From assembly GCF_054482525.1 (NCBI RefSeq), contig NZ_CM137006.1: 64,000 nucleotides of DNA, one strand, 5' to 3'. The position numbers were made by a program, and so were the translations under genes. The notes under the pieces are model-generated. The model saw nothing but the letters and a program-made list of their open reading frames with translations. It searched no databases and was not told the DNA's origin. Positions 1,004 through 58,329 of the stretch are shown piece by piece (position 1 is the stretch's first letter; every line of letters begins with the position of its first letter).

Positions 1004-1088
1004 TGGTGCCGAAGGCCGGACTCGAACCGGCACGTATTTCTACGGTTGATTTTGAATCAACTGCGTCTACCGATTTCGCCACTTCGGC
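1004..1088 (-). tRNA. leuX: tRNA-Leu (anticodon CAA)
   Basis: 85-nt reverse complement reads GCCGAAGTGGCGAAATCGGTAGACGCAGTTGATTCAAAATCAACCGTAGAAATACGTGCCGGTTCGAGTCCGGCCTTCGGCACCA, with CAA anticodon and encoded CCA end. Confidence 0.96.
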
Positions 1089-4970: not shown

Positions 4971-6290
4971 ATGCCATTAATCATTATTGCGGCAGGCGTC
5001 GCGCTGCTTCTTATCCTGATGATCGGCTTTAAAGTTAACGGCTTTATTGCCCTCGTTCTGGTAGCTGCCGTCGTCGGATTTGCCGAAGGGATGGATGCAC
5101 AGGCCGTCCTGCACTCTATACAAAATGGTATCGGCAGCACGCTCGGCGGGCTGGCAATGATCCTCGGTTTCGGGGCCATGTTAGGCAAGCTGATTTCTGA
5201 TACGGGCGCGGCACAACGTATCGCCACTACGCTGATTGCTACTTTTGGTAAAAAACGCGTGCAATGGGCGCTAGTGATCACCGGTCTGGTTGTGGGCCTC
5301 GCCATGTTTTTTGAAGTGGGTTTTGTCCTGCTGTTGCCGTTGGTATTTACCATCGTAGCATCATCAGGATTACCCCTGTTGTATGTTGGCGTACCAATGG
5401 TAGCAGCGCTCTCTGTAACCCACTGTTTTCTGCCGCCACATCCAGGGCCTACTGCCATCGCGACTATCTTTGAGGCTAATCTCGGAACGACTTTACTGTA
5501 TGGATTTATCATTACCATTCCGACAGTTATTGTCGCAGGACCGCTGTTTTCTAAACTGCTAACTCGCTTTGAGAAAGCACCACCGGAAGGCTTATTTAAT
5601 CCTCATCTGTTTAGCGAAGAGGAGATGCCCTCCTTCTGGAACAGTATTTTCGCTGCCGTGATCCCGGTCATCCTGATGGCTATCGCCGCCGTTTGTGAAA
5701 TTACGTTACCGAAAACTAACACCGTGCGCCTCTTCTTTGAATTTGTCGGTAACCCTGCCGTTGCGCTGTTTATTGCCATTGTTATTGCGATTTTCACACT
5801 GGGCCGACGTAATGGACGCACCATCGAGCAAATCATGGATATCATTGGGGATTCTATAGGCGCTATCGCGATGATTGTGTTTATTATCGCTGGCGGCGGC
5901 GCGTTTAAGCAGGTATTAGTAGATAGCGGTGTCGGGCAGTATATTTCACACTTAATGACCGGAACTACACTTTCGCCGTTATTGATGTGCTGGACTGTTG
6001 CGGCGCTGTTGCGTATCGCTCTGGGCTCTGCCACCGTCGCGGCCATTACCACCGCGGGTGTGGTGTTGCCGATTATCAACGTTACCCATGCCGATCCCGC
6101 TTTAATGGTACTGGCAACCGGTGCGGGCAGCGTGATCGCGTCACACGTAAACGACCCTGGCTTCTGGCTATTTAAAGGGTATTTTAATCTGACGGTTGGT
6201 GAAACGTTGCGTACCTGGACGGTGATGGAAACCCTTATTTCTATTATGGGTTTGCTGGGCGTGTTAGCCATTAACGCCGTATTGCACTGA
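4971..6290 (+). CDS. idnT: L-idonate / 5-ketogluconate / gluconate transporter (GntP family)
   Basis: 439 aa polytopic membrane protein, matches IdnT. Confidence 0.92.
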   Translation: MPLIIIAAGVALLLILMIGFKVNGFIALVLVAAVVGFAEGMDAQAVLHSIQNGIGSTLGGLAMILGFGAMLGKLISDTGAAQRIATTLIATFGKKRVQWALVITGLVVGLAMFFEVGFVLLLPLVFTIVASSGLPLLYVGVPMVAALSVTHCFLPPHPGPTAIATIFEANLGTTLLYGFIITIPTVIVAGPLFSKLLTRFEKAPPEGLFNPHLFSEEEMPSFWNSIFAAVIPVILMAIAAVCEITLPKTNTVRLFFEFVGNPAVALFIAIVIAIFTLGRRNGRTIEQIMDIIGDSIGAIAMIVFIIAGGGAFKQVLVDSGVGQYISHLMTGTTLSPLLMCWTVAALLRIALGSATVAAITTAGVVLPIINVTHADPALMVLATGAGSVIASHVNDPGFWLFKGYFNLTVGETLRTWTVMETLISIMGLLGVLAINAVLH

Positions 6291-6356
6291 AAGAATAAAA
6301 TATTGTGATGTAGTTTCGGGGGAAGATTGAAGATTCCCCCGACGTTGGGAGAAGTT

Positions 6357-7355
6357 ATGCGCAATCACAGAATTTCTTTACAGGATATCGCTACGCTGGC
6401 TGGCGTAACAAAAATGACCGTGAGTCGTTATATCCGCTCGCCGAAAAAGGTGGCAAAGGAAACAGGCGAGCGCATCGCCAAAATTATGGAAGAGATCAAT
6501 TATATCCCTAATCGCGCTCCCGGCATGTTGTTGAATGCACAAAGTTATACCCTCGGTATCTTGATTCCGTCATTTCAAAATCAACTCTTCGCTGACATTC
6601 TCGCGGGAATAGAATCCGTCACCTCTGAGCATAATTATCAGACCCTTATTGCTAATTACAATTACGATCGCGATTCCGAAGAAGAGTCGGTGATTAACCT
6701 GCTCTCTTATAACATTGACGGGATTATACTTTCGGAAAAATATCACACCATCAGGACGGTGAAATTTCTGCGTTCAGCCACCATTCCGGTCGTGGAATTG
6801 ATGGATGTACAGGGAGAACGGCTGGATATGGAGGTCGGTTTTGATAATCGGCAGGCCGCTTTTGACATGGTGTGTACCATGCTGGAGAAGCGAGTCAGGC
6901 ACAAAATTCTGTATCTCGGTTCCAAAGATGACACCCGCGATGAACAGCGTTATCAGGGGTATTGCGATGCGATGATGCTGCATAATCTTTCCCCATTACG
7001 CATGAATCCACGCGCCATCTCATCCATTCATTTAGGAATGCAGTTAATGCGTGATGCCCTTAGCGCAAACCCGGATTTAGACGGTGTATTTTGCACCAAT
7101 GACGATATTGCGATGGGTGCGCTTCTGCTGTGCCGCGAGCGAAACCTCGCCGTGCCAGAACAAATTTCCATTGCGGGTTTTCATGGGCTGGAGATTGGCA
7201 GGCAAATGATCCCAAGCCTCGCCAGCGTAATTACTCCCCGTTTTGATATTGGTCGGATGGCCGCCCAAATGTTGCTGAGCAAAATTAAAAATAACGATCA
7301 CAACCACAACACTGTTGACCTCGGGTATCAGATTTATCACGGCAACACGCTTTAG
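6357..7355 (+). CDS. idnR: LacI-family transcriptional regulator of the idn operon
   Basis: HTH segment [20 protein letters not shown]; annotated start MRNHRISLQ (332 aa) inside ORF 6327..7355. Confidence 0.9.
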
Positions 7356-7432
7356 GTTATTTTCTCTTCATTACACGTATTCTCTTTGCCGGACGTTGCC
7401 TATACTCCAGGCAGGAAACTGGAGGATATCTC

Positions 7433-8935
7433 ATGAGCGAACCCCTGTTAATTGCCCGCACGCCAGACACAGAACTGTTTTTACTACCCGCTATGGCTAA
7501 CCGTCATGGGCTGATTACCGGCGCAACGGGGACGGGTAAAACCGTTACGCTGCAAAAACTGGCGGAGTCATTGTCGGAAATCGGCGTTCCGGTGTTTATG
7601 GCCGATGTGAAAGGCGATCTGACCGGCGTCGCGCAGGCAGGAACGGCGTCGGAAAAACTGCTCGCAAGGCTTAAAAATATCGGCGTAAATGACTGGCAAC
7701 CGCATGCTAATCCGGTGGTGGTGTGGGATATCTTTGGCGAGAAAGGCCATCCGGTGCGGGCGACGGTTTCGGATCTGGGGCCGCTGTTGCTGGCGCGACT
7801 GTTGAATCTCAACGATGTGCAATCTGGCGTGCTGAATATTATCTTTCGTATTGCTGATGATCAGGGGCTGTTACTGCTCGACTTTAAAGATTTGCGGGCG
7901 ATTACCCAGTACATCGGCGATAACGCCAAATCCTTCCAGAATCAGTACGGTAATATCAGTAGCGCATCGGTTGGTGCCATCCAGCGCGGGCTGTTGTCGC
8001 TGGAACAGCAAGGCGCAGCACACTTCTTTGGTGAGCCGATGCTGGATATCAAAGACTGGATGCGCACCGATGCCAACGGTAAAGGCGTTATCAATATCCT
8101 CAGCGCCGAGAAACTTTATCAGATGCCGAAACTGTACGCCGCCAGCCTGCTGTGGATGCTTTCAGAGTTGTATGAACAATTGCCTGAAGCGGGCGATCTG
8201 GAGAAACCAAAACTGGTGTTTTTCTTCGACGAAGCACATCTGCTGTTTAACGATGCACCGCAGGTACTGCTGGATAAGATTGAGCAGGTGATAAGGCTTA
8301 TTCGCTCAAAAGGCGTGGGCGTCTGGTTCGTTTCGCAAAACCCGTCAGATATTCCGGATAATGTGCTCGGGCAGCTCGGTAATCGCGTTCAGCACGCTTT
8401 GCGGGCTTTTACGCCAAAAGATCAGAAAGCAGTGAAGGCAGCGGCGCAAACCATGCGGGCCAATCCGGCGTTTGATACCGAAAAGGCAATCCAGGAACTG
8501 GGGACCGGCGAGGCGTTAATCTCGTTTCTCGATGCGAAAGGAAGCCCTTCAGTGGTGGAACGGGCGATGGTGATTGCCCCCTGTTCACGAATGGGGCCGG
8601 TGACGGAAGATGAGCGTAATGGCTTGATTAATCACTCCCCGGTGTATGGCAAGTACGAGGATGACGTGGACCGGGAATCCGCCTATGAGATGTTGCAAAA
8701 AGGCTTTCAGGCCAGTACCGAGCAGCAAAATAATCCTCCCGCGAAAGGGAAAGAGGTGGCGGTGGATGACGGTATTCTTGGTGGATTGAAGGATATTTTG
8801 TTTGGCACTACCGGACCACGCGGCGGGAAGAAAGATGGTGTGGTGCAAACAATGGCGAAAAGCGCCGCTCGCCAGGTGACGAATCAGATTGTACGCGGGA
8901 TGTTGGGGAGTTTGCTGGGGGGGAGAAAAAGATAA
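7433..8935 (+). CDS. yjgR: DUF853-family P-loop NTPase
   Basis: 500 aa, Walker A GATGTGKT, Walker-B-like FFFDEAH. Confidence 0.88.
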
Positions 8936-9095
8936 GTCAGGTGCGATTTGTCTTTGCCTGATGCGACGCTGGCGCGCTTTATCATGCCTACACTACTGCA
9001 ATATATTGAATTTTCATGATTTTTCAGGCATGAACGAAGCACACTTTGCTAACAATAATAAAGGGAGCTTTCGCTCCCTTTATTCGTTCATCAGG

Positions 9096-10178
9096 TTACG
9101 ATTTTCTCATTAACAGCCACAGGCTGATTAAGAAGAAGCTGGCGCTTGGCAACAGTGCGCCAATGATCGGCGGGATGCCATAAACCAACGTCAGCGGGCC
9201 GAAGATCTGGTCCAGTACGTAGAAAACAAAACCGAAGCTGATACCGGTGACCACACGCACGCCCATCGGTACGCTACGCAGTGGGCCAAAGATGAACGAC
9301 AGCGCCATCAACATCATCACCGCCACGGATAGCGGCTGGAAGATTTTGCTCCACATGTTGAGCTGATAACGTCCGGCATCCTGACCGCTCGACTTCAGAT
9401 ACTTCACATAGTTGTGCAAACCACTGATGGAGAGTGCATCCGGGTCCAGCGCCACCACGCCCAGTTTGTCTGGCGTGAGGTTGGTTTTCCAGGTGCCGCT
9501 CACCGTCTGCGAACCGGTGATCTGTTTCGGATTGGTCAAATCAGATTCATCAACCTGCGACAGACGCCAGACTTTATGTTCCGGGTCAAACTTCGCGGTA
9601 GCGGCATAACGTACGGATTGCAGACGACGATTCTCGTTAAAGGCATAAATACTGATGCCACCTAACTCCTCGTCACCTTTAACCCGCTCAATGTAGACGA
9701 AGTTGTTGCCATCTTTCGCCCATAAGCCTTGCTGGGTAGAGAGCAACGAGCCGCCGTACATCGCCTGCGCACGGTAGTTACGCGCCATCTGTTCGCCCTG
9801 CGGCGCGACCCATTCGCCAATCGCCATCGTCAGCAAGACCAGCGGAATGGCGGTTTTCATCACCGACAGCGCAACCTGCATACGGGTAAAACCAGAAGCC
9901 TGCATCACCACCAGTTCGCTGCGCTGCGCCAGCATCCCAAGACCAAGCAACGCCCCAAGCAGAGCCGCCATCGGGAAGAAGATTTGCACATCTTTCGGCA
10001 CGCTCAGCAAGGTATACATTCCTGCGCCTAACGCGTCGTAACTCCCCTGCCCGGCTTTTTTCAGCTGATCGACAAACTTGATAATGCCCGACAGCGACAC
10101 CAGCATGAACAGCGTCATCATGATGGTGGTGAAAATAGTTTTACCGATATAGCGGTCAAGTACGCCAAAAGGTTGCAT
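9096..10178 (-). CDS. lptG: LPS export ABC transporter permease
   Basis: ORF 9096..10181 begins with a GTG codon; the ATG one codon in gives the 360-aa LptG (MQPFGVLDRYIGK...). Confidence 0.92.
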   Translation of the reverse strand: MQPFGVLDRYIGKTIFTTIMMTLFMLVSLSGIIKFVDQLKKAGQGSYDALGAGMYTLLSVPKDVQIFFPMAALLGALLGLGMLAQRSELVVMQASGFTRMQVALSVMKTAIPLVLLTMAIGEWVAPQGEQMARNYRAQAMYGGSLLSTQQGLWAKDGNNFVYIERVKGDEELGGISIYAFNENRRLQSVRYAATAKFDPEHKVWRLSQVDESDLTNPKQITGSQTVSGTWKTNLTPDKLGVVALDPDALSISGLHNYVKYLKSSGQDAGRYQLNMWSKIFQPLSVAVMMLMALSFIFGPLRSVPMGVRVVTGISFGFVFYVLDQIFGPLTLVYGIPPIIGALLPSASFFLISLWLLMRKS

Positions 10179-29802: not shown

Positions 29803-30062
29803 AAGGAGTCCCTCCGCACTGTCTGAAACAGTACAGAAATGTCTTCAGGCGTGGCGAAGCCTTACCTGAAGGTAATAAAGCTGAGCTGGGACGTTAAAAC
29901 GTCACGGCCTTACGCATCCGGTAACGCCGTGAAAAGACGGGCTTACCGGAAAAGTTTTAATCTCCGTCGAGGGAGAGGCGTGGGATCAGGTTCCATATAA
30001 CCTCCGGTAAGTGAAAAAAGCGCCGCAAATAATAAGGAGAATCCAATAATATTCGTAGCATC
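29803..30062 (-). promoter_or_regulatory. mgtA 5' leader (Mg2+- and proline-sensing attenuator region)
   Basis: About 260-nt untranslated leader between the putative -10 (30072..30077) and the mgtA start; contains mgtL. Confidence 0.65.
29943..29996 (-). CDS. mgtL: mgtA leader peptide (proline-rich)
   Basis: [17 protein letters not shown] (17 aa) = last 17 codons of the 113-aa ORF-track entry 29943..30284. Confidence 0.8.
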
Positions 30063-48518: not shown

Positions 48519-48600
48519 CGCCAGATAAGACACAACAGCGTCGCATCAGGCATCTCGCACAACCGCCGGATGCGGCGTGAATGCCTTATCCGGCGGCCCA
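48519..48600. repeat. REP/BIME palindromic units between ytfR and ytfQ
   Basis: gccagataagacacaacagcgtcgcatcaggc and ccgccggatgcggcgtgaatgccttatccggcgg. Confidence 0.6.
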
Positions 48601-58152: not shown

Positions 58153-58329
58153 AGTTTTTCATTTATCAGCAGTCTGAATTTTAACCCTCTGGCGGCTTTA
58201 CAGTACCTTACGCTATACTAGCCACTGAAAATGCCGGTTCACTTTCTTCGAATCGGCTTTCAATGTGTATTTCACACAAATTAATCAACTTCCCCTTCCG
58301 AGGATCTGGCCTGAAAGGTCGGATAAGAT

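Follow-up and report, generated by a model that had tools for sequence, protein, structure and literature searches.

Our analysis suggests that YjgR, the product of a core chromosomal gene of Escherichia coli, is a stand-alone hexameric translocase that is tethered to the inner membrane and probably acts on DNA, a reading which, taken as a whole, we regard as evenly balanced between right and wrong. In this scheme RecA-like subunits would assemble into a hexameric ring, a "pumping ATPase" of the FtsK-HerA type, which binds ATP and very probably also hydrolyses it. As the product of a vertically inherited core gene, the protein would act alone, without a HAS-barrel region or a partner gene. A variable flexible spacer would join the motor to a C-terminal cationic amphipathic helix serving as a reversible tether at the cytoplasmic face of the inner membrane, so that motor, linker and anchor would follow one another in the order opposite to that in FtsK, SpoIIIE or TrwB. 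At the membrane, the ring would use ATP to thread a polymer, most probably double-stranded DNA, through its central pore, probably in stationary phase or under stress rather than during growth. Because the gene, its family, its fold and a solved structure are already known and on record, YjgR does not represent a new kind of system. What goes beyond the existing annotation is the lack of the HAS-barrel region, the lack of a partner gene together with near-absence from true plasmids, and the architecture of the tail.

The yjgR gene and its locus

The yjgR coding sequence spans positions 7433..8935 of the forward strand of the window, i.e. the whole 64,000-nucleotide stretch of DNA that was analysed. 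It is an ATG-initiated frame with the 500 aa (plus a stop) and the Walker A motif GATGTGKT that the initial annotation had described, the motif being at aa 30-37; a Shine-Dalgarno sequence, GGAGGA (7421..7426, +), is recognizable in the sequence 6 nt before the ATG. The identical protein of E. coli PCN033 is recorded in RefSeq as yjgR, "helicase HerA-like C-terminal domain-containing protein". The Pfam profile HerA_C (PF05872, formerly DUF853) matches YjgR at 845.9 bits (cut-off 22, E = 1e-254), with residues 5-500 covering positions 3-502 of the 502 in the profile, which amounts to its full length. Given this match, the thousands of homologues recovered by homologue searches and the 17 peptides seen by proteomics in a membrane preparation, yjgR is a real gene rather than a chance ORF, and its product is the founding member of this family.

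The view of YjgR as an unplaced P-loop NTPase is not supported. The "YjgR family of the HerA clade" was defined within the FtsK-HerA superfamily in a 2004 classification, in the wording quoted from it by later work, DUF853 is now HerA_C, and a structure 99.2% identical in sequence to the YjgR of the window has been deposited as PDB 11kk ("HerA like helicase YjgR", six chains). The accompanying statement that no function has been assigned agrees with the searched literature (to August 2026), in which YjgR, DUF853, PF05872 or Rv2510c receive passing mentions only, no paper describing 11kk was found, and a 2025 study terms YjgR "an uncharacterized protein".

The gene lies, as had been stated, between the idn genes and the convergent lptFG pair: idnT (4971-6290, +) and idnR (6327-7355, +) are upstream, while lptG (9096-10181, -) and, beyond it, lptF (10178-11278, -) and then pepA are downstream. 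A candidate -10 element of the sigma-S/sigma-70 type, CTATACT (7400..7406, +), was located in the sequence 27 nt upstream of the ATG, and is suggestive by position only because the motif is not enriched in the window (2 observed versus 2.9 expected). A sigma-70 scan returned no full promoter upstream of yjgR, no intrinsic terminator was detected between idnR and CTATACT, and Rfam gave no match within or adjoining the gene. The yjgR-lptG spacer contains two strand-neutral elements. The first is an imperfect, REP-like inverted repeat (8941..9044; arms of 21 nt, 71% complementary) that probably lies outside the function of yjgR. The second is a perfect 12-bp hairpin, AAUAAAGGGAGC-UUUC-GCUCCCUUUAUU (9057..9084; deltaG -17.6 kcal/mol; z = -5.35; equally stable structures in 0 of 200 shuffles), which is a candidate bidirectional intrinsic terminator common to the convergent yjgR and lptG.

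The ATPase core and its relatives

The first approximately 435 residues (7433..8737, +) form an ATPase core with the RecA-like fold. The structure comparison that had been proposed as a check, carried out against a fold library of PDB releases up to 2026-04-08 that did not include 11kk, places this core unambiguously in the HerA/VirB4/TrwB branch. The Walker A motif or P-loop (7520..7543, +) is preceded by an NRHG signature (R24, H25, G26) of the HerA type, and across 60 diverse members H25, G30, G33, G35 and K36 are invariant. A DVKGD motif (7604..7618, +; aa 58-62) follows the second core strand, with D58 and D62 invariant and K60 and G61 at least 90% conserved in the same members; we take it to be the counterpart of the "D-P-K" motif in FtsK, VirB4 and HerA. 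An all-helical insertion between core strands (7751..8077, +; aa ~107-215) harbors Q130, which is invariant in the family, as well as D153 and R185, which are almost invariant. The motif that the initial annotation called "Walker-B-like" is indeed present, but it is a full Walker B, VFFFDE (8216..8233, +; aa 262-267), with the catalytic glutamate; A268 and H269 follow it directly, and D266, E267, A268 and H269 are each at least 90% conserved among the 60 members. The arginine-finger/sensor segment (8303..8344, +; aa 291-304) lines up, residue by residue, with "EGRKYGIGMMLVSQRP" from a bacterial HerA, and its R291, S292, G294 and Q302 show at least 90% conservation in the same set; by analogy with the homologues, R291 would correspond to the arginine finger and Q302 to the sensor. 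The catalytic set (K36/T37 of Walker A, D266/E267 of Walker B, R291 and Q302) is thus intact, and the core features of the FtsK-HerA superfamily are all found, namely a RecA-like core, Walker A, Walker B of the form hhhhDE, a trans arginine finger and a polar sensor after the next strand.

In an E. coli lysate YjgR was reported to be "strongly stabilized by ATP", with the stabilized peptides at or adjoining the P-loop. The sole basis for a hexamer is the six-chain count of PDB 11kk, as given by the entry listing rather than by coordinates. With ATP binding shown, a six-chain structure in existence and the remainder deduced from the conserved motifs and fold, it is highly probable that YjgR is a ring ATPase of the HerA/VirB4/TrwB branch.

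The top structural match is HerA, the archaeal and Deinococcus DNA end-resection translocase of the HerA-NurA system (PDB: 4d2i, 7f6d, 9x1m), with 15-19% identity and a superposition that takes in about 305 of the roughly 435 residues of the core. Several differences separate the two. YjgR lacks the first roughly 137 residues of HerA, which comprise the HAS-barrel region: its Walker A starts at residue 30, its residue 18 falls opposite residue 155 in the alignment with a bacterial HerA, and its predicted model opens directly with the core strands. The NCBIfam HerA equivalog models score it at 38.0 bits (cut-off 800) and 29.3 bits (cut-off 970), below both thresholds. Furthermore, YjgR has a C-terminal linker and amphipathic tail, an arrangement of which we know no description for HerA. 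These comparisons bear on the alternative that YjgR is a soluble, nucleoid-associated helicase or translocase of DNA repair and recombination, a NurA-free bacterial counterpart of HerA whose tail binds DNA or a repair partner. The structural ranking and the depositors' name for 11kk, "HerA like helicase", both speak for it, but the missing HAS-barrel region speaks against it, as does the searched literature, in which neither a DNA-damage phenotype nor SOS control of yjgR was found; overall, we consider it possible but doubtful.

FtsK and SpoIIIE belong to the same superfamily as YjgR and would share with it a common logic of membrane anchor, long variable linker and hexameric DNA pump. The DxK, arginine-finger and TQRP-type motifs of FtsK have equivalents in YjgR. 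Among the ATPases of type IV secretion systems (T4SS), which include the coupling protein TrwB/VirD4 (PDB: 1e9r, 1gl6), DotL and VirB4 (PDB: 4ag5), TrwB is anchored by an N-terminal pair of transmembrane (TM) helices, whereas the putative anchor of YjgR is a C-terminal amphipathic helix. The NCBIfam VirB4, TraC and TraD models score YjgR at 14-32 bits, far below their cut-offs of 520-643.

The nearest relatives with an established function, HerA, DptH, TdpA, TrwB and FtsK, act on DNA, and because the closest structural relatives act on double-stranded DNA, this is the most probable polymer; VirB4 and EccC of the same structural branch, which work in protein secretion, count against a DNA substrate. 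We hold the threading of a polymer, most probably double-stranded DNA, and its use in stationary phase or stress only tentatively, somewhat short of an even chance. A membrane-associated ATPase of the VirB4 or EccC/EssC kind, acting on proteins or peptides in export, extraction or remodelling at the inner membrane, would fit a membrane-tether architecture equally. However, where the substrates of the closest relatives are known, they are mostly DNA, and the NCBIfam VirB4, TraC and EccC models reach 15-32 bits against cut-offs of 509-643. In some family members the fusion partner is a TerD or GYF_2 module and not a DNA-binding domain, and Genomic SELEX has reported binding sites for the RpoE and RpoH holoenzymes at yjgR, both of which would favor a protein substrate, the latter through an envelope-stress role; yet these peaks are located within yjgR itself and are classed as type D, i.e. 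at non-promoter positions. Together with the lack of secretion-system genes near yjgR in any of 66 loci (see below), these observations make a protein substrate of this kind unlikely.

Phyletic distribution and gene neighborhoods

As a single chromosomal copy, yjgR is found in 5,425 of 5,426 complete E. coli genomes, and its GC content (0.51-0.52) is typical of the host. Its expression has been reported to rise 4.7-fold at entry to stationary phase in E. coli O157:H7. Elsewhere, loss-of-function alleles are reported to be tolerated and even linked with larger colonies. Both reports favor a use of YjgR in stationary phase or stress. To follow the neighborhood conservation suggested as a further check, the ORFs called in 80 loci were grouped under both strict and loose clustering thresholds, and 66 loci from six phyla were analysed; no conserved partner gene emerged. 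The commonest neighboring family, the divergently oriented YebC, occurs in 12 of the 66 loci, all from Burkholderiales, and the other neighbors with synteny at the level of this order, PurD, NadD, HemF and Upp, are unrelated housekeeping genes. Under loose clustering no neighboring family was present in more than 3 taxon groups, and the metagenomic contexts of three distant representatives were unrelated. Several large neighbor "clusters" proved to be spurious antisense ORFs in GC-rich DNA and were rejected.

Since no neighbor is conserved beyond order-level synteny in the 66 loci, yjgR behaves as a single-gene unit, in line with the expectation of an isolated gene. The use of its position as a pointer to function is upheld only in that the gene is solitary: the idn/lptFG setting is limited to Escherichia, Citrobacter and Enterobacter, and is uninformative on function. 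No nurA, Mre11, Rad50 or other repair gene was found near yjgR at the E. coli locus or in any of the 66 loci, a further point against a soluble repair helicase. Likewise, the 66 loci contain no neighboring Sir2, other nuclease, T4SS, relaxase or secretion-system genes, which further distinguishes YjgR from the T4SS ATPases.

Matches on plasmids are confined to 31 of 72,556 records, nearly all of them megabase-sized replicons, and those on "plasmids" of 4-5 Mb were discounted as chromosomes or chromids, leaving yjgR essentially absent from true plasmids. On the grounds of this comparative genomics, YjgR is with good probability the product of a stand-alone core gene.

The same patterns weigh on the idea of a defence role, in which YjgR would be an ATPase directed against phages or mobile elements, by itself or together with effectors whose genes lie elsewhere. 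Many of its top structural neighbors are defence complexes, the relatives of this kind including SIR2-HerA (PDB: 8wiv, 8sub, 8j4u), DUF4297-HerA (PDB: 8ziq, 9c1m), the DptH/DndH C-domain (PDB: 7es4), TdpA (PDB: 8wet) and Mad8 of the MADS system (PADLOC PDLC04140). In PADLOC it is matched best by mad8 (69 bits, E = 1e-19, aa 22-366) and next by several defence-HerA models, but these matches are restricted to the shared ATPase core, and the NCBIfam anti-phage HerA models give 17-18 bits where 800-850 would be required. A "YjgR" domain is recorded as co-occurring with one UG12 reverse transcriptase, a label that may be a generic HerA COG name. Defence HerA genes share operons with effectors and vary in their presence, whereas yjgR is a core, single-copy gene at a fixed housekeeping locus in E. 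coli, has no adjoining effector gene conserved in any lineage of the 66 loci, and is essentially absent from true plasmids. Even with the presence of homologues in phages, as is often the case for conflict systems, a defence function is most improbable.

The phage homologues belong to the PHROGs family phrog_7035, annotated as "unknown function", and their genes sit among those for a Cas4 exonuclease, a RuvC-like resolvase and DNA ligase, i.e. within DNA-metabolism modules, a setting that speaks for DNA as the substrate and that also favors the soluble repair helicase. Matches to "Acinetobacter phage MD-2021a" were discounted as probable bacterial contigs.

The C-terminal tail as a candidate membrane tether

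Beyond the core, a flexible linker (8738..8851, +; aa 436-473; pLDDT below 55) with a clade-conserved 10-aa stretch (8810-8839, +; aa 460-469) leads to a conserved cationic amphipathic C-terminal element (8852..8932, +; aa 474-500), which is proposed here as the membrane tether. Across the family the linker ranges in length between 32 and 320 aa and commonly consists of a low-complexity segment rich in E/K/R/A. For the tail of YjgR, which is rich in Gly/Ser/Thr/Arg and has a net charge of +3 to +4, AlphaFold2 (AF2) predicts an isolated helix at 474-490, with pLDDT below 50. An R[GS]hhG motif occurs within the last 45 aa in 65 of the 66 genomic loci. Measured over 77 diverse members, the final 14 aa carry a mean net charge of +3.0 and are 34% hydrophobic, as against +0.4 and 21% in the linker. 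Helical periodicity exceeds that of composition-matched shuffles (p<0.05) in the tail of 31% of members and in the linker control of 6%, the combined p-value being inflated because the sequences are related; the E. coli tail by itself does not reach significance (p = 0.14) and has a low mean hydrophobicity. It is at the level of the family that a terminal cationic amphipathic helix, of the type found in MinD and FtsA, is conserved in character.

The C-terminal targeting sequences of MinD and FtsA share with the YjgR tail the form of a short, cationic, hydrophobic-periodic helix placed after a flexible segment, and the net charge and hydrophobic moment of the tail are in the same range. MinD terminates in "...KGFLKRLFGG", and endings of the YjgR family such as "...RGILGSLKK" are similar in character. 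Drawn from sequence alone, this likeness is a resemblance only, and it has a limit: the MinD/FtsA sequences are loosely conserved, whereas the YjgR motif is conserved in sequence, Gly-rich and with GxxxG-like spacing. Conservation of the tail across phyla, including its Gly positions, is as strong as that of the core, which exceeds what generic lipid binding demands; a specific protein partner or helix-helix packing would fit as well. This sequence-specific conservation, with the charge and composition of the tail, would also suit a soluble repair helicase with a defined partner.

A different indication comes from the phage relatives, in which a TM-like hydrophobic helix (KD19 1.8-2.8) stands in place of the tail in 4 of 5 lineages: RcZahn gp71, Klebsiella phage N133 gp059, Rhizobium phage RHph_X2_30 and RcSalem gp87, the last type being present in about 23 related phages. 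Several metagenomic representatives have a TM-like helix at the same position. A DNA-binding tail would not be expected to be exchanged for a TM helix, as happened in these four phage lineages and metagenomic members, and this counts against the soluble repair helicase; a conserved tail that is replaced by a TM helix in phage relatives suggests, instead, that YjgR is tethered to the inner membrane. Data on localization are divided. YjgR is catalogued in STEPdb as peripheral to the inner membrane (category "IM-cyto"), and its 17 peptides came from a membrane preparation, but in that proteomic study its sucrose-gradient profile groups with those of soluble proteins instead of inner-membrane vesicles, as would suit a soluble helicase, and the authors regard many "IM-cyto" proteins as contaminants. 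YjgR is also absent from the supplementary tables of the Min-dependent membrane proteome. On balance, we rate the tail as a reversible inner-membrane tether at slightly better than an even chance. A fusion to Ltp repeats (P0145) had been considered in this connection, but gives no support to a tether because the TM segment expected between the ATPase and the surface-lipoprotein repeats is not present.

Taken further, the YjgR family might represent an unrecognized class of minimal membrane-docked polymer pumps whose task in stationary phase would be to handle DNA or would be linked to the envelope, although we judge this rather unlikely. Six Gly-rich amphipathic helices, or TM helices in the phages, would then assemble under the ATPase ring at the inner membrane, with the spacer setting the distance of the motor and the helices possibly forming or gating a conduit. 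If this were true, the task would be one that the known systems of E. coli leave uncovered, and phages would have adopted the family for genome traffic at the membrane.

The YjgR family, with about 1,700 clusters at 50% identity with E ≤ 1e-30, extends over many bacterial phyla and several phage lineages, and yjgR itself is one of the remaining widely conserved "y-genes" of E. coli with a clear enzymatic fold and no assigned role. Our analysis sets aside its interpretation as a HerA-NurA repair gene, a defence island gene or a conjugation gene, and adds a hypothesis that can be tested cheaply, namely that the conserved C-terminal element is a membrane tether. As a core, partner-less relative of DNA pumps such as FtsK, HerA, TrwB and the viral packaging ATPases, YjgR is a reasonable place to search for an unassigned DNA- or envelope-related housekeeping activity.

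The yjgR gene and its surroundings

The yjgR gene (7433-8935, plus strand) begins with an ATG, is preceded by a Shine-Dalgarno sequence (GGAGGA, 7421-7426, plus strand) and encodes a 500-residue protein with a Walker A motif, GATGTGKT, at residues 30-37 and a canonical Walker B motif, VFFFDE, at residues 262-267. At the DNA level it matches yjgR of E. coli PCN033 with 100% identity; in the RefSeq annotation of that genome idnK and, on the same strand, idnDOTR lie upstream, with the convergent lptG-lptF, then pepA, holC and valS, downstream. The ORF, the motifs and this placement therefore bear out the initial annotation, which described a P-loop NTPase between the idn operon and convergent lptFG. 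Single-copy and chromosomal in 5,425 of 5,426 complete E. coli genomes, and with a host-typical GC content of 0.51-0.52, yjgR is a native core gene.

The finding is thus real and correctly described, yet the gene, family and fold are already catalogued and a structure has been deposited. The Pfam family HerA_C (PF05872, previously DUF853) matches the whole protein with a score of 846 bits, and the PDB sequence set contains a six-chain entry named "HerA like helicase YjgR" (11kk), which is 99.2% identical to the YjgR of the window (differences A20G, A72V, D410E and K499R). This entry must be very recent because it is absent from a fold library with releases up to 2026-04-08, and a literature search found no accompanying publication. 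The absence of an assigned function, also claimed in the initial annotation, agrees with the literature searched to August 2026, which yielded no functional assignment for YjgR.

Several other elements were recognized in the window. Just past the yjgR stop lies an imperfect inverted repeat with the REP-like sequence GCCTGATGCGACGCT (8941-9044; 21-nt arms, 71% complementary). Between the convergent yjgR and lptG is a perfect 12-bp hairpin with A- and U-tract flanks (9057-9084; -17.6 kcal/mol, z = -5.35), a candidate that is probably a bidirectional terminator and that went undetected in a simple terminator scan. The 16-residue micro-protein gene ytgA (RefSeq, PCN033; ~11341-11391, minus strand; 12909-12959 in the genome locus record L001) is situated between lptF and pepA, and Ysr276, a family of Yersinia antisense sRNAs, is matched over its full length by a segment antisense inside pepA (12103-12297, minus strand; Rfam score 185.8 bits, gathering score 100). 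At the left end of the window, a tRNA (Rfam; 1007-1088, minus strand) annotated as tRNA-Leu in PCN033, where a tyrosine integrase is immediately adjacent, represents a typical island integration site. Rfam matches above the gathering score further include a Magnesium-II riboswitch (29896-30011, minus), naRNA4 (48519-48595, minus), STnc450 (58211-58268, plus) and the ES239 sRNA (62840-62962, minus).

The ATPase core and its relatives

An AlphaFold2 model built from 60 diverse family members is confident from residue 1 to about 435 (pLDDT mostly >95), and residues 458-500 are unstructured except for an isolated predicted helix at 474-490. Structure comparison, which the initial annotation had proposed, recovered HerA, DptH/DndH and VirB4 as the best-placed relatives, with scores of 28.1 for S. 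solfataricus HerA, 27.4 for the DptH/DndH C-domain, 26.5 for the VirB4 C-terminal domain and 24.5 for D. radiodurans HerA, followed by TrwB (22.0), TdpA (18.5), DotL (17.3), STIV2 B204 and EccC (both 16.0), FtsK (14.9) and RecA (~12). The set of catalytic motifs is complete and conserved: R24-H25-G26 precedes the P-loop with its K36 and T37, a conserved DVKGD motif occupies residues 58-62, the acidic pair of Walker B is D266-E267, and residues 291-304 align residue for residue with the arginine-finger/sensor block of bacterial HerA, GRKYGIGMMLVSQRP. YjgR is an intact, ATP-binding P-loop ATPase of the HerA/VirB4/TrwB branch, for which a six-chain structure exists. Whereas HerA proper possesses an N-terminal HAS-barrel region, YjgR opens directly at the ATPase core and lacks that region, as its residue 18 already corresponds to HerA residue 155 in the alignment. 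The NCBIfam equivalog models for HerA, CedD, VirB4 and TraC all score it far below their cut-offs (at best 49 bits against 600).

The C-terminal tail and its proposed membrane association

The main new result of this analysis concerns the extreme C-terminus. Among 1.8 billion representative proteins, 1,680 clusters of the YjgR family were retrieved at E <= 1e-30. In full-length members the conserved core stops near YjgR residue 430 and is followed by 32-320 residues (median 80), comprising a low-complexity spacer, often rich in E, K, R and A and very variable in length, and a conserved closing segment. A typical ending reads "...AKSAAR..G...GRQLxRGVLGSLLGGxKR", and at 65 of the 66 genomic loci, which represent six phyla, the protein carries the motif R[GS]hhG within its last 45 residues. 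In a set of 77 diverse members, the mean net charge over the last 14 residues is +3.0 and 34% of these residues are hydrophobic, as against +0.4 and 21% in the linker; the helical hydrophobic moment, taken over the last 24 residues, is larger than in composition-matched shuffles (p<0.05) in 31% of members, against 6% for the linker control. The combined p for the tail helical moment, ~4e-21, is inflated by relatedness of the sequences (linker control 0.34); the E. coli tail by itself gives p = 0.14. Distant members have generic basic amphipathic endings ("...SLFK", "...LFGGKKK", "...LLKLSK"), and several metagenomic representatives carry a hydrophobic TM-like helix at the tail position.

Of the five genuine phage lineages with a YjgR homologue, all known from complete, annotated genomes, four have such a helix as well. 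Rhodobacter phage RcZahn gp71 ends in "...EVLGVLLIGVLIGVGLTLIMT" (C-terminal hydrophobicity, KD19, 2.77), two hydrophobic segments are present in both Klebsiella phage YMC16/01/N133 gp059 (2.25) and Rhizobium phage RHph_X2_30 (2.51), and RcSalem gp87 with ~23 related phages reaches 1.79. In the remaining lineage, that of Xanthomonas jumbo phage Xoo-sp13, an "RGMLG...RRMFKTA" ending is retained. Because a TM helix can take the place of the cationic amphipathic one after a flexible spacer, the tail has the properties one expects of a membrane-attachment device. An alternative, which we consider doubtful, is that YjgR is soluble and works in repair as a helicase like HerA, using its tail to bind DNA or a partner. 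A DNA-binding tail is hard to square with the helix interchange. The strong conservation of the motif in sequence, its GxxxG-like glycine spacing included, would also be compatible with binding to a specific protein partner or with helix packing.

Two further peculiarities of this region were observed. A second conserved element, "TGPRGG[KR]x[DQ]G", lies within the variable linker ahead of the terminal helix (window 8810-8839, residues 460-469) in Enterobacteria, Betaproteobacteria, Methylococcales and others, and could be a hinge, protease site or binding site. In certain family representatives (among P0142, P0153, P0239 and P0145) the tail is replaced by other modules, namely TerD (two independent cases), GYF_2 and Ltp repeats; another representative, P0131, has an N-terminal extension of J-domain-like appearance that lacks a Pfam match.

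Published fractionation data are mixed. In STEPdb, YjgR is assigned to the peripheral proteins of the inner membrane. A 2020 study detected it in a membrane preparation (17 peptides) with a sucrose-gradient profile peaking at mid to high density and grouped with soluble proteins; its authors regarded many such proteins as contaminants, large complexes or conditional binders. This behavior could be compatible with a ~330-kDa hexamer on a reversible tether, possibly dependent on nucleotide or growth phase.

Distribution, setting and probable role

A pattern scan with one genome per species recovered at least 597 confirmed yjgR loci, of which the best 80 were analyzed, spanning Entero-, Beta-, Gamma- and Alphaproteobacteria, Acidobacteriota, Verrucomicrobiota, Planctomycetota, Spirochaetes and Clostridia. 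At the 66 loci with an anchored orthologue, the commonest neighbor family, the divergently oriented YebC/TACO1, occurs only 12 times, always in Burkholderiales-type genomes, followed by PurD, NadD, HemF and Upp; when neighbors were clustered at loose thresholds, no family reached more than three taxon groups and positions were inconsistent. The neighborhood check suggested in the initial annotation hence revealed no conserved partner gene, and the idn/lptFG setting is confined to Escherichia, Citrobacter and Enterobacter. Relatives occur in 31 of 72,556 plasmid records, nearly all megabase-sized replicons. The lack of recurring neighbors and the near-absence from plasmids indicate that yjgR is a vertically inherited, stand-alone gene, which counts against HerA-NurA, defense-island and conjugation readings. 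A defense ATPase is accordingly very improbable: the top PADLOC match, to Mad8 from the MADS system at 69 bits, covers just the ATPase core, and genes for a nuclease, Sir2, a methylase or a T4SS do not recur beside yjgR at the 66 loci. A membrane ATPase directed at proteins, as are VirB4 and EccC, is likewise an unlikely reading.

Many PLSDB "plasmids" bearing yjgR are chromosome-sized (3.5-5.4 Mb), a database labeling problem. Similarly, two 240-kb "Acinetobacter phage MD-2021a" records (CAKLQH020000003.1, CAKLQF020000004.1) carry yjgR with 56.6% identity to the query and look like bacterial contigs because Acinetobacter baumannii copies in PLSDB are equally similar (56-57%).

YjgR-like ATPases are encoded by several unrelated tailed phages (locus records L085, 4956-6305; L086, 4935-6431; L087, 3001-4365; L088, 2956-4209; L089, 2878-4089) in early or DNA-metabolism regions, near genes for a Cas4 exonuclease, a RuvC-like resolvase and DNA ligase and, in Xoo-sp13, for a GTP pyrophosphokinase; PHROGs lists them as phrog_7035, "unknown function". 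In the explanation that we favor, to which we give an even chance overall, YjgR would form a hexameric ring in which R291 serves as the trans arginine finger for ATP hydrolysis and through whose pore a polymer is threaded, with the spacer tethering the ring to the inner membrane on its cytoplasmic side, a layout equivalent to that of FtsK/SpoIIIE/TrwB in reversed order. Our confidence is high for the ATPase ring and moderate for the tether. It is low for the substrate, most probably DNA, a choice suggested by the action of the nearest relatives of known function on DNA and by the genes adjoining the phage copies.

[quoted passage not shown] Genomic SELEX placed RpoH- and RpoE-holoenzyme binding peaks within the gene (K-12 coordinate 4486746, type D), and the gene is listed in the MazF-processed set. 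The stationary-phase induction and the tolerance of null alleles, together with a -10-like CTATACT element (plus strand) 27 nt ahead of the ATG, whose occurrence is statistically non-significant, suggest a conditional, non-growth role. On the whole, the comparative analysis narrows the role of YjgR to that of a stand-alone, probably membrane-tethered translocase.
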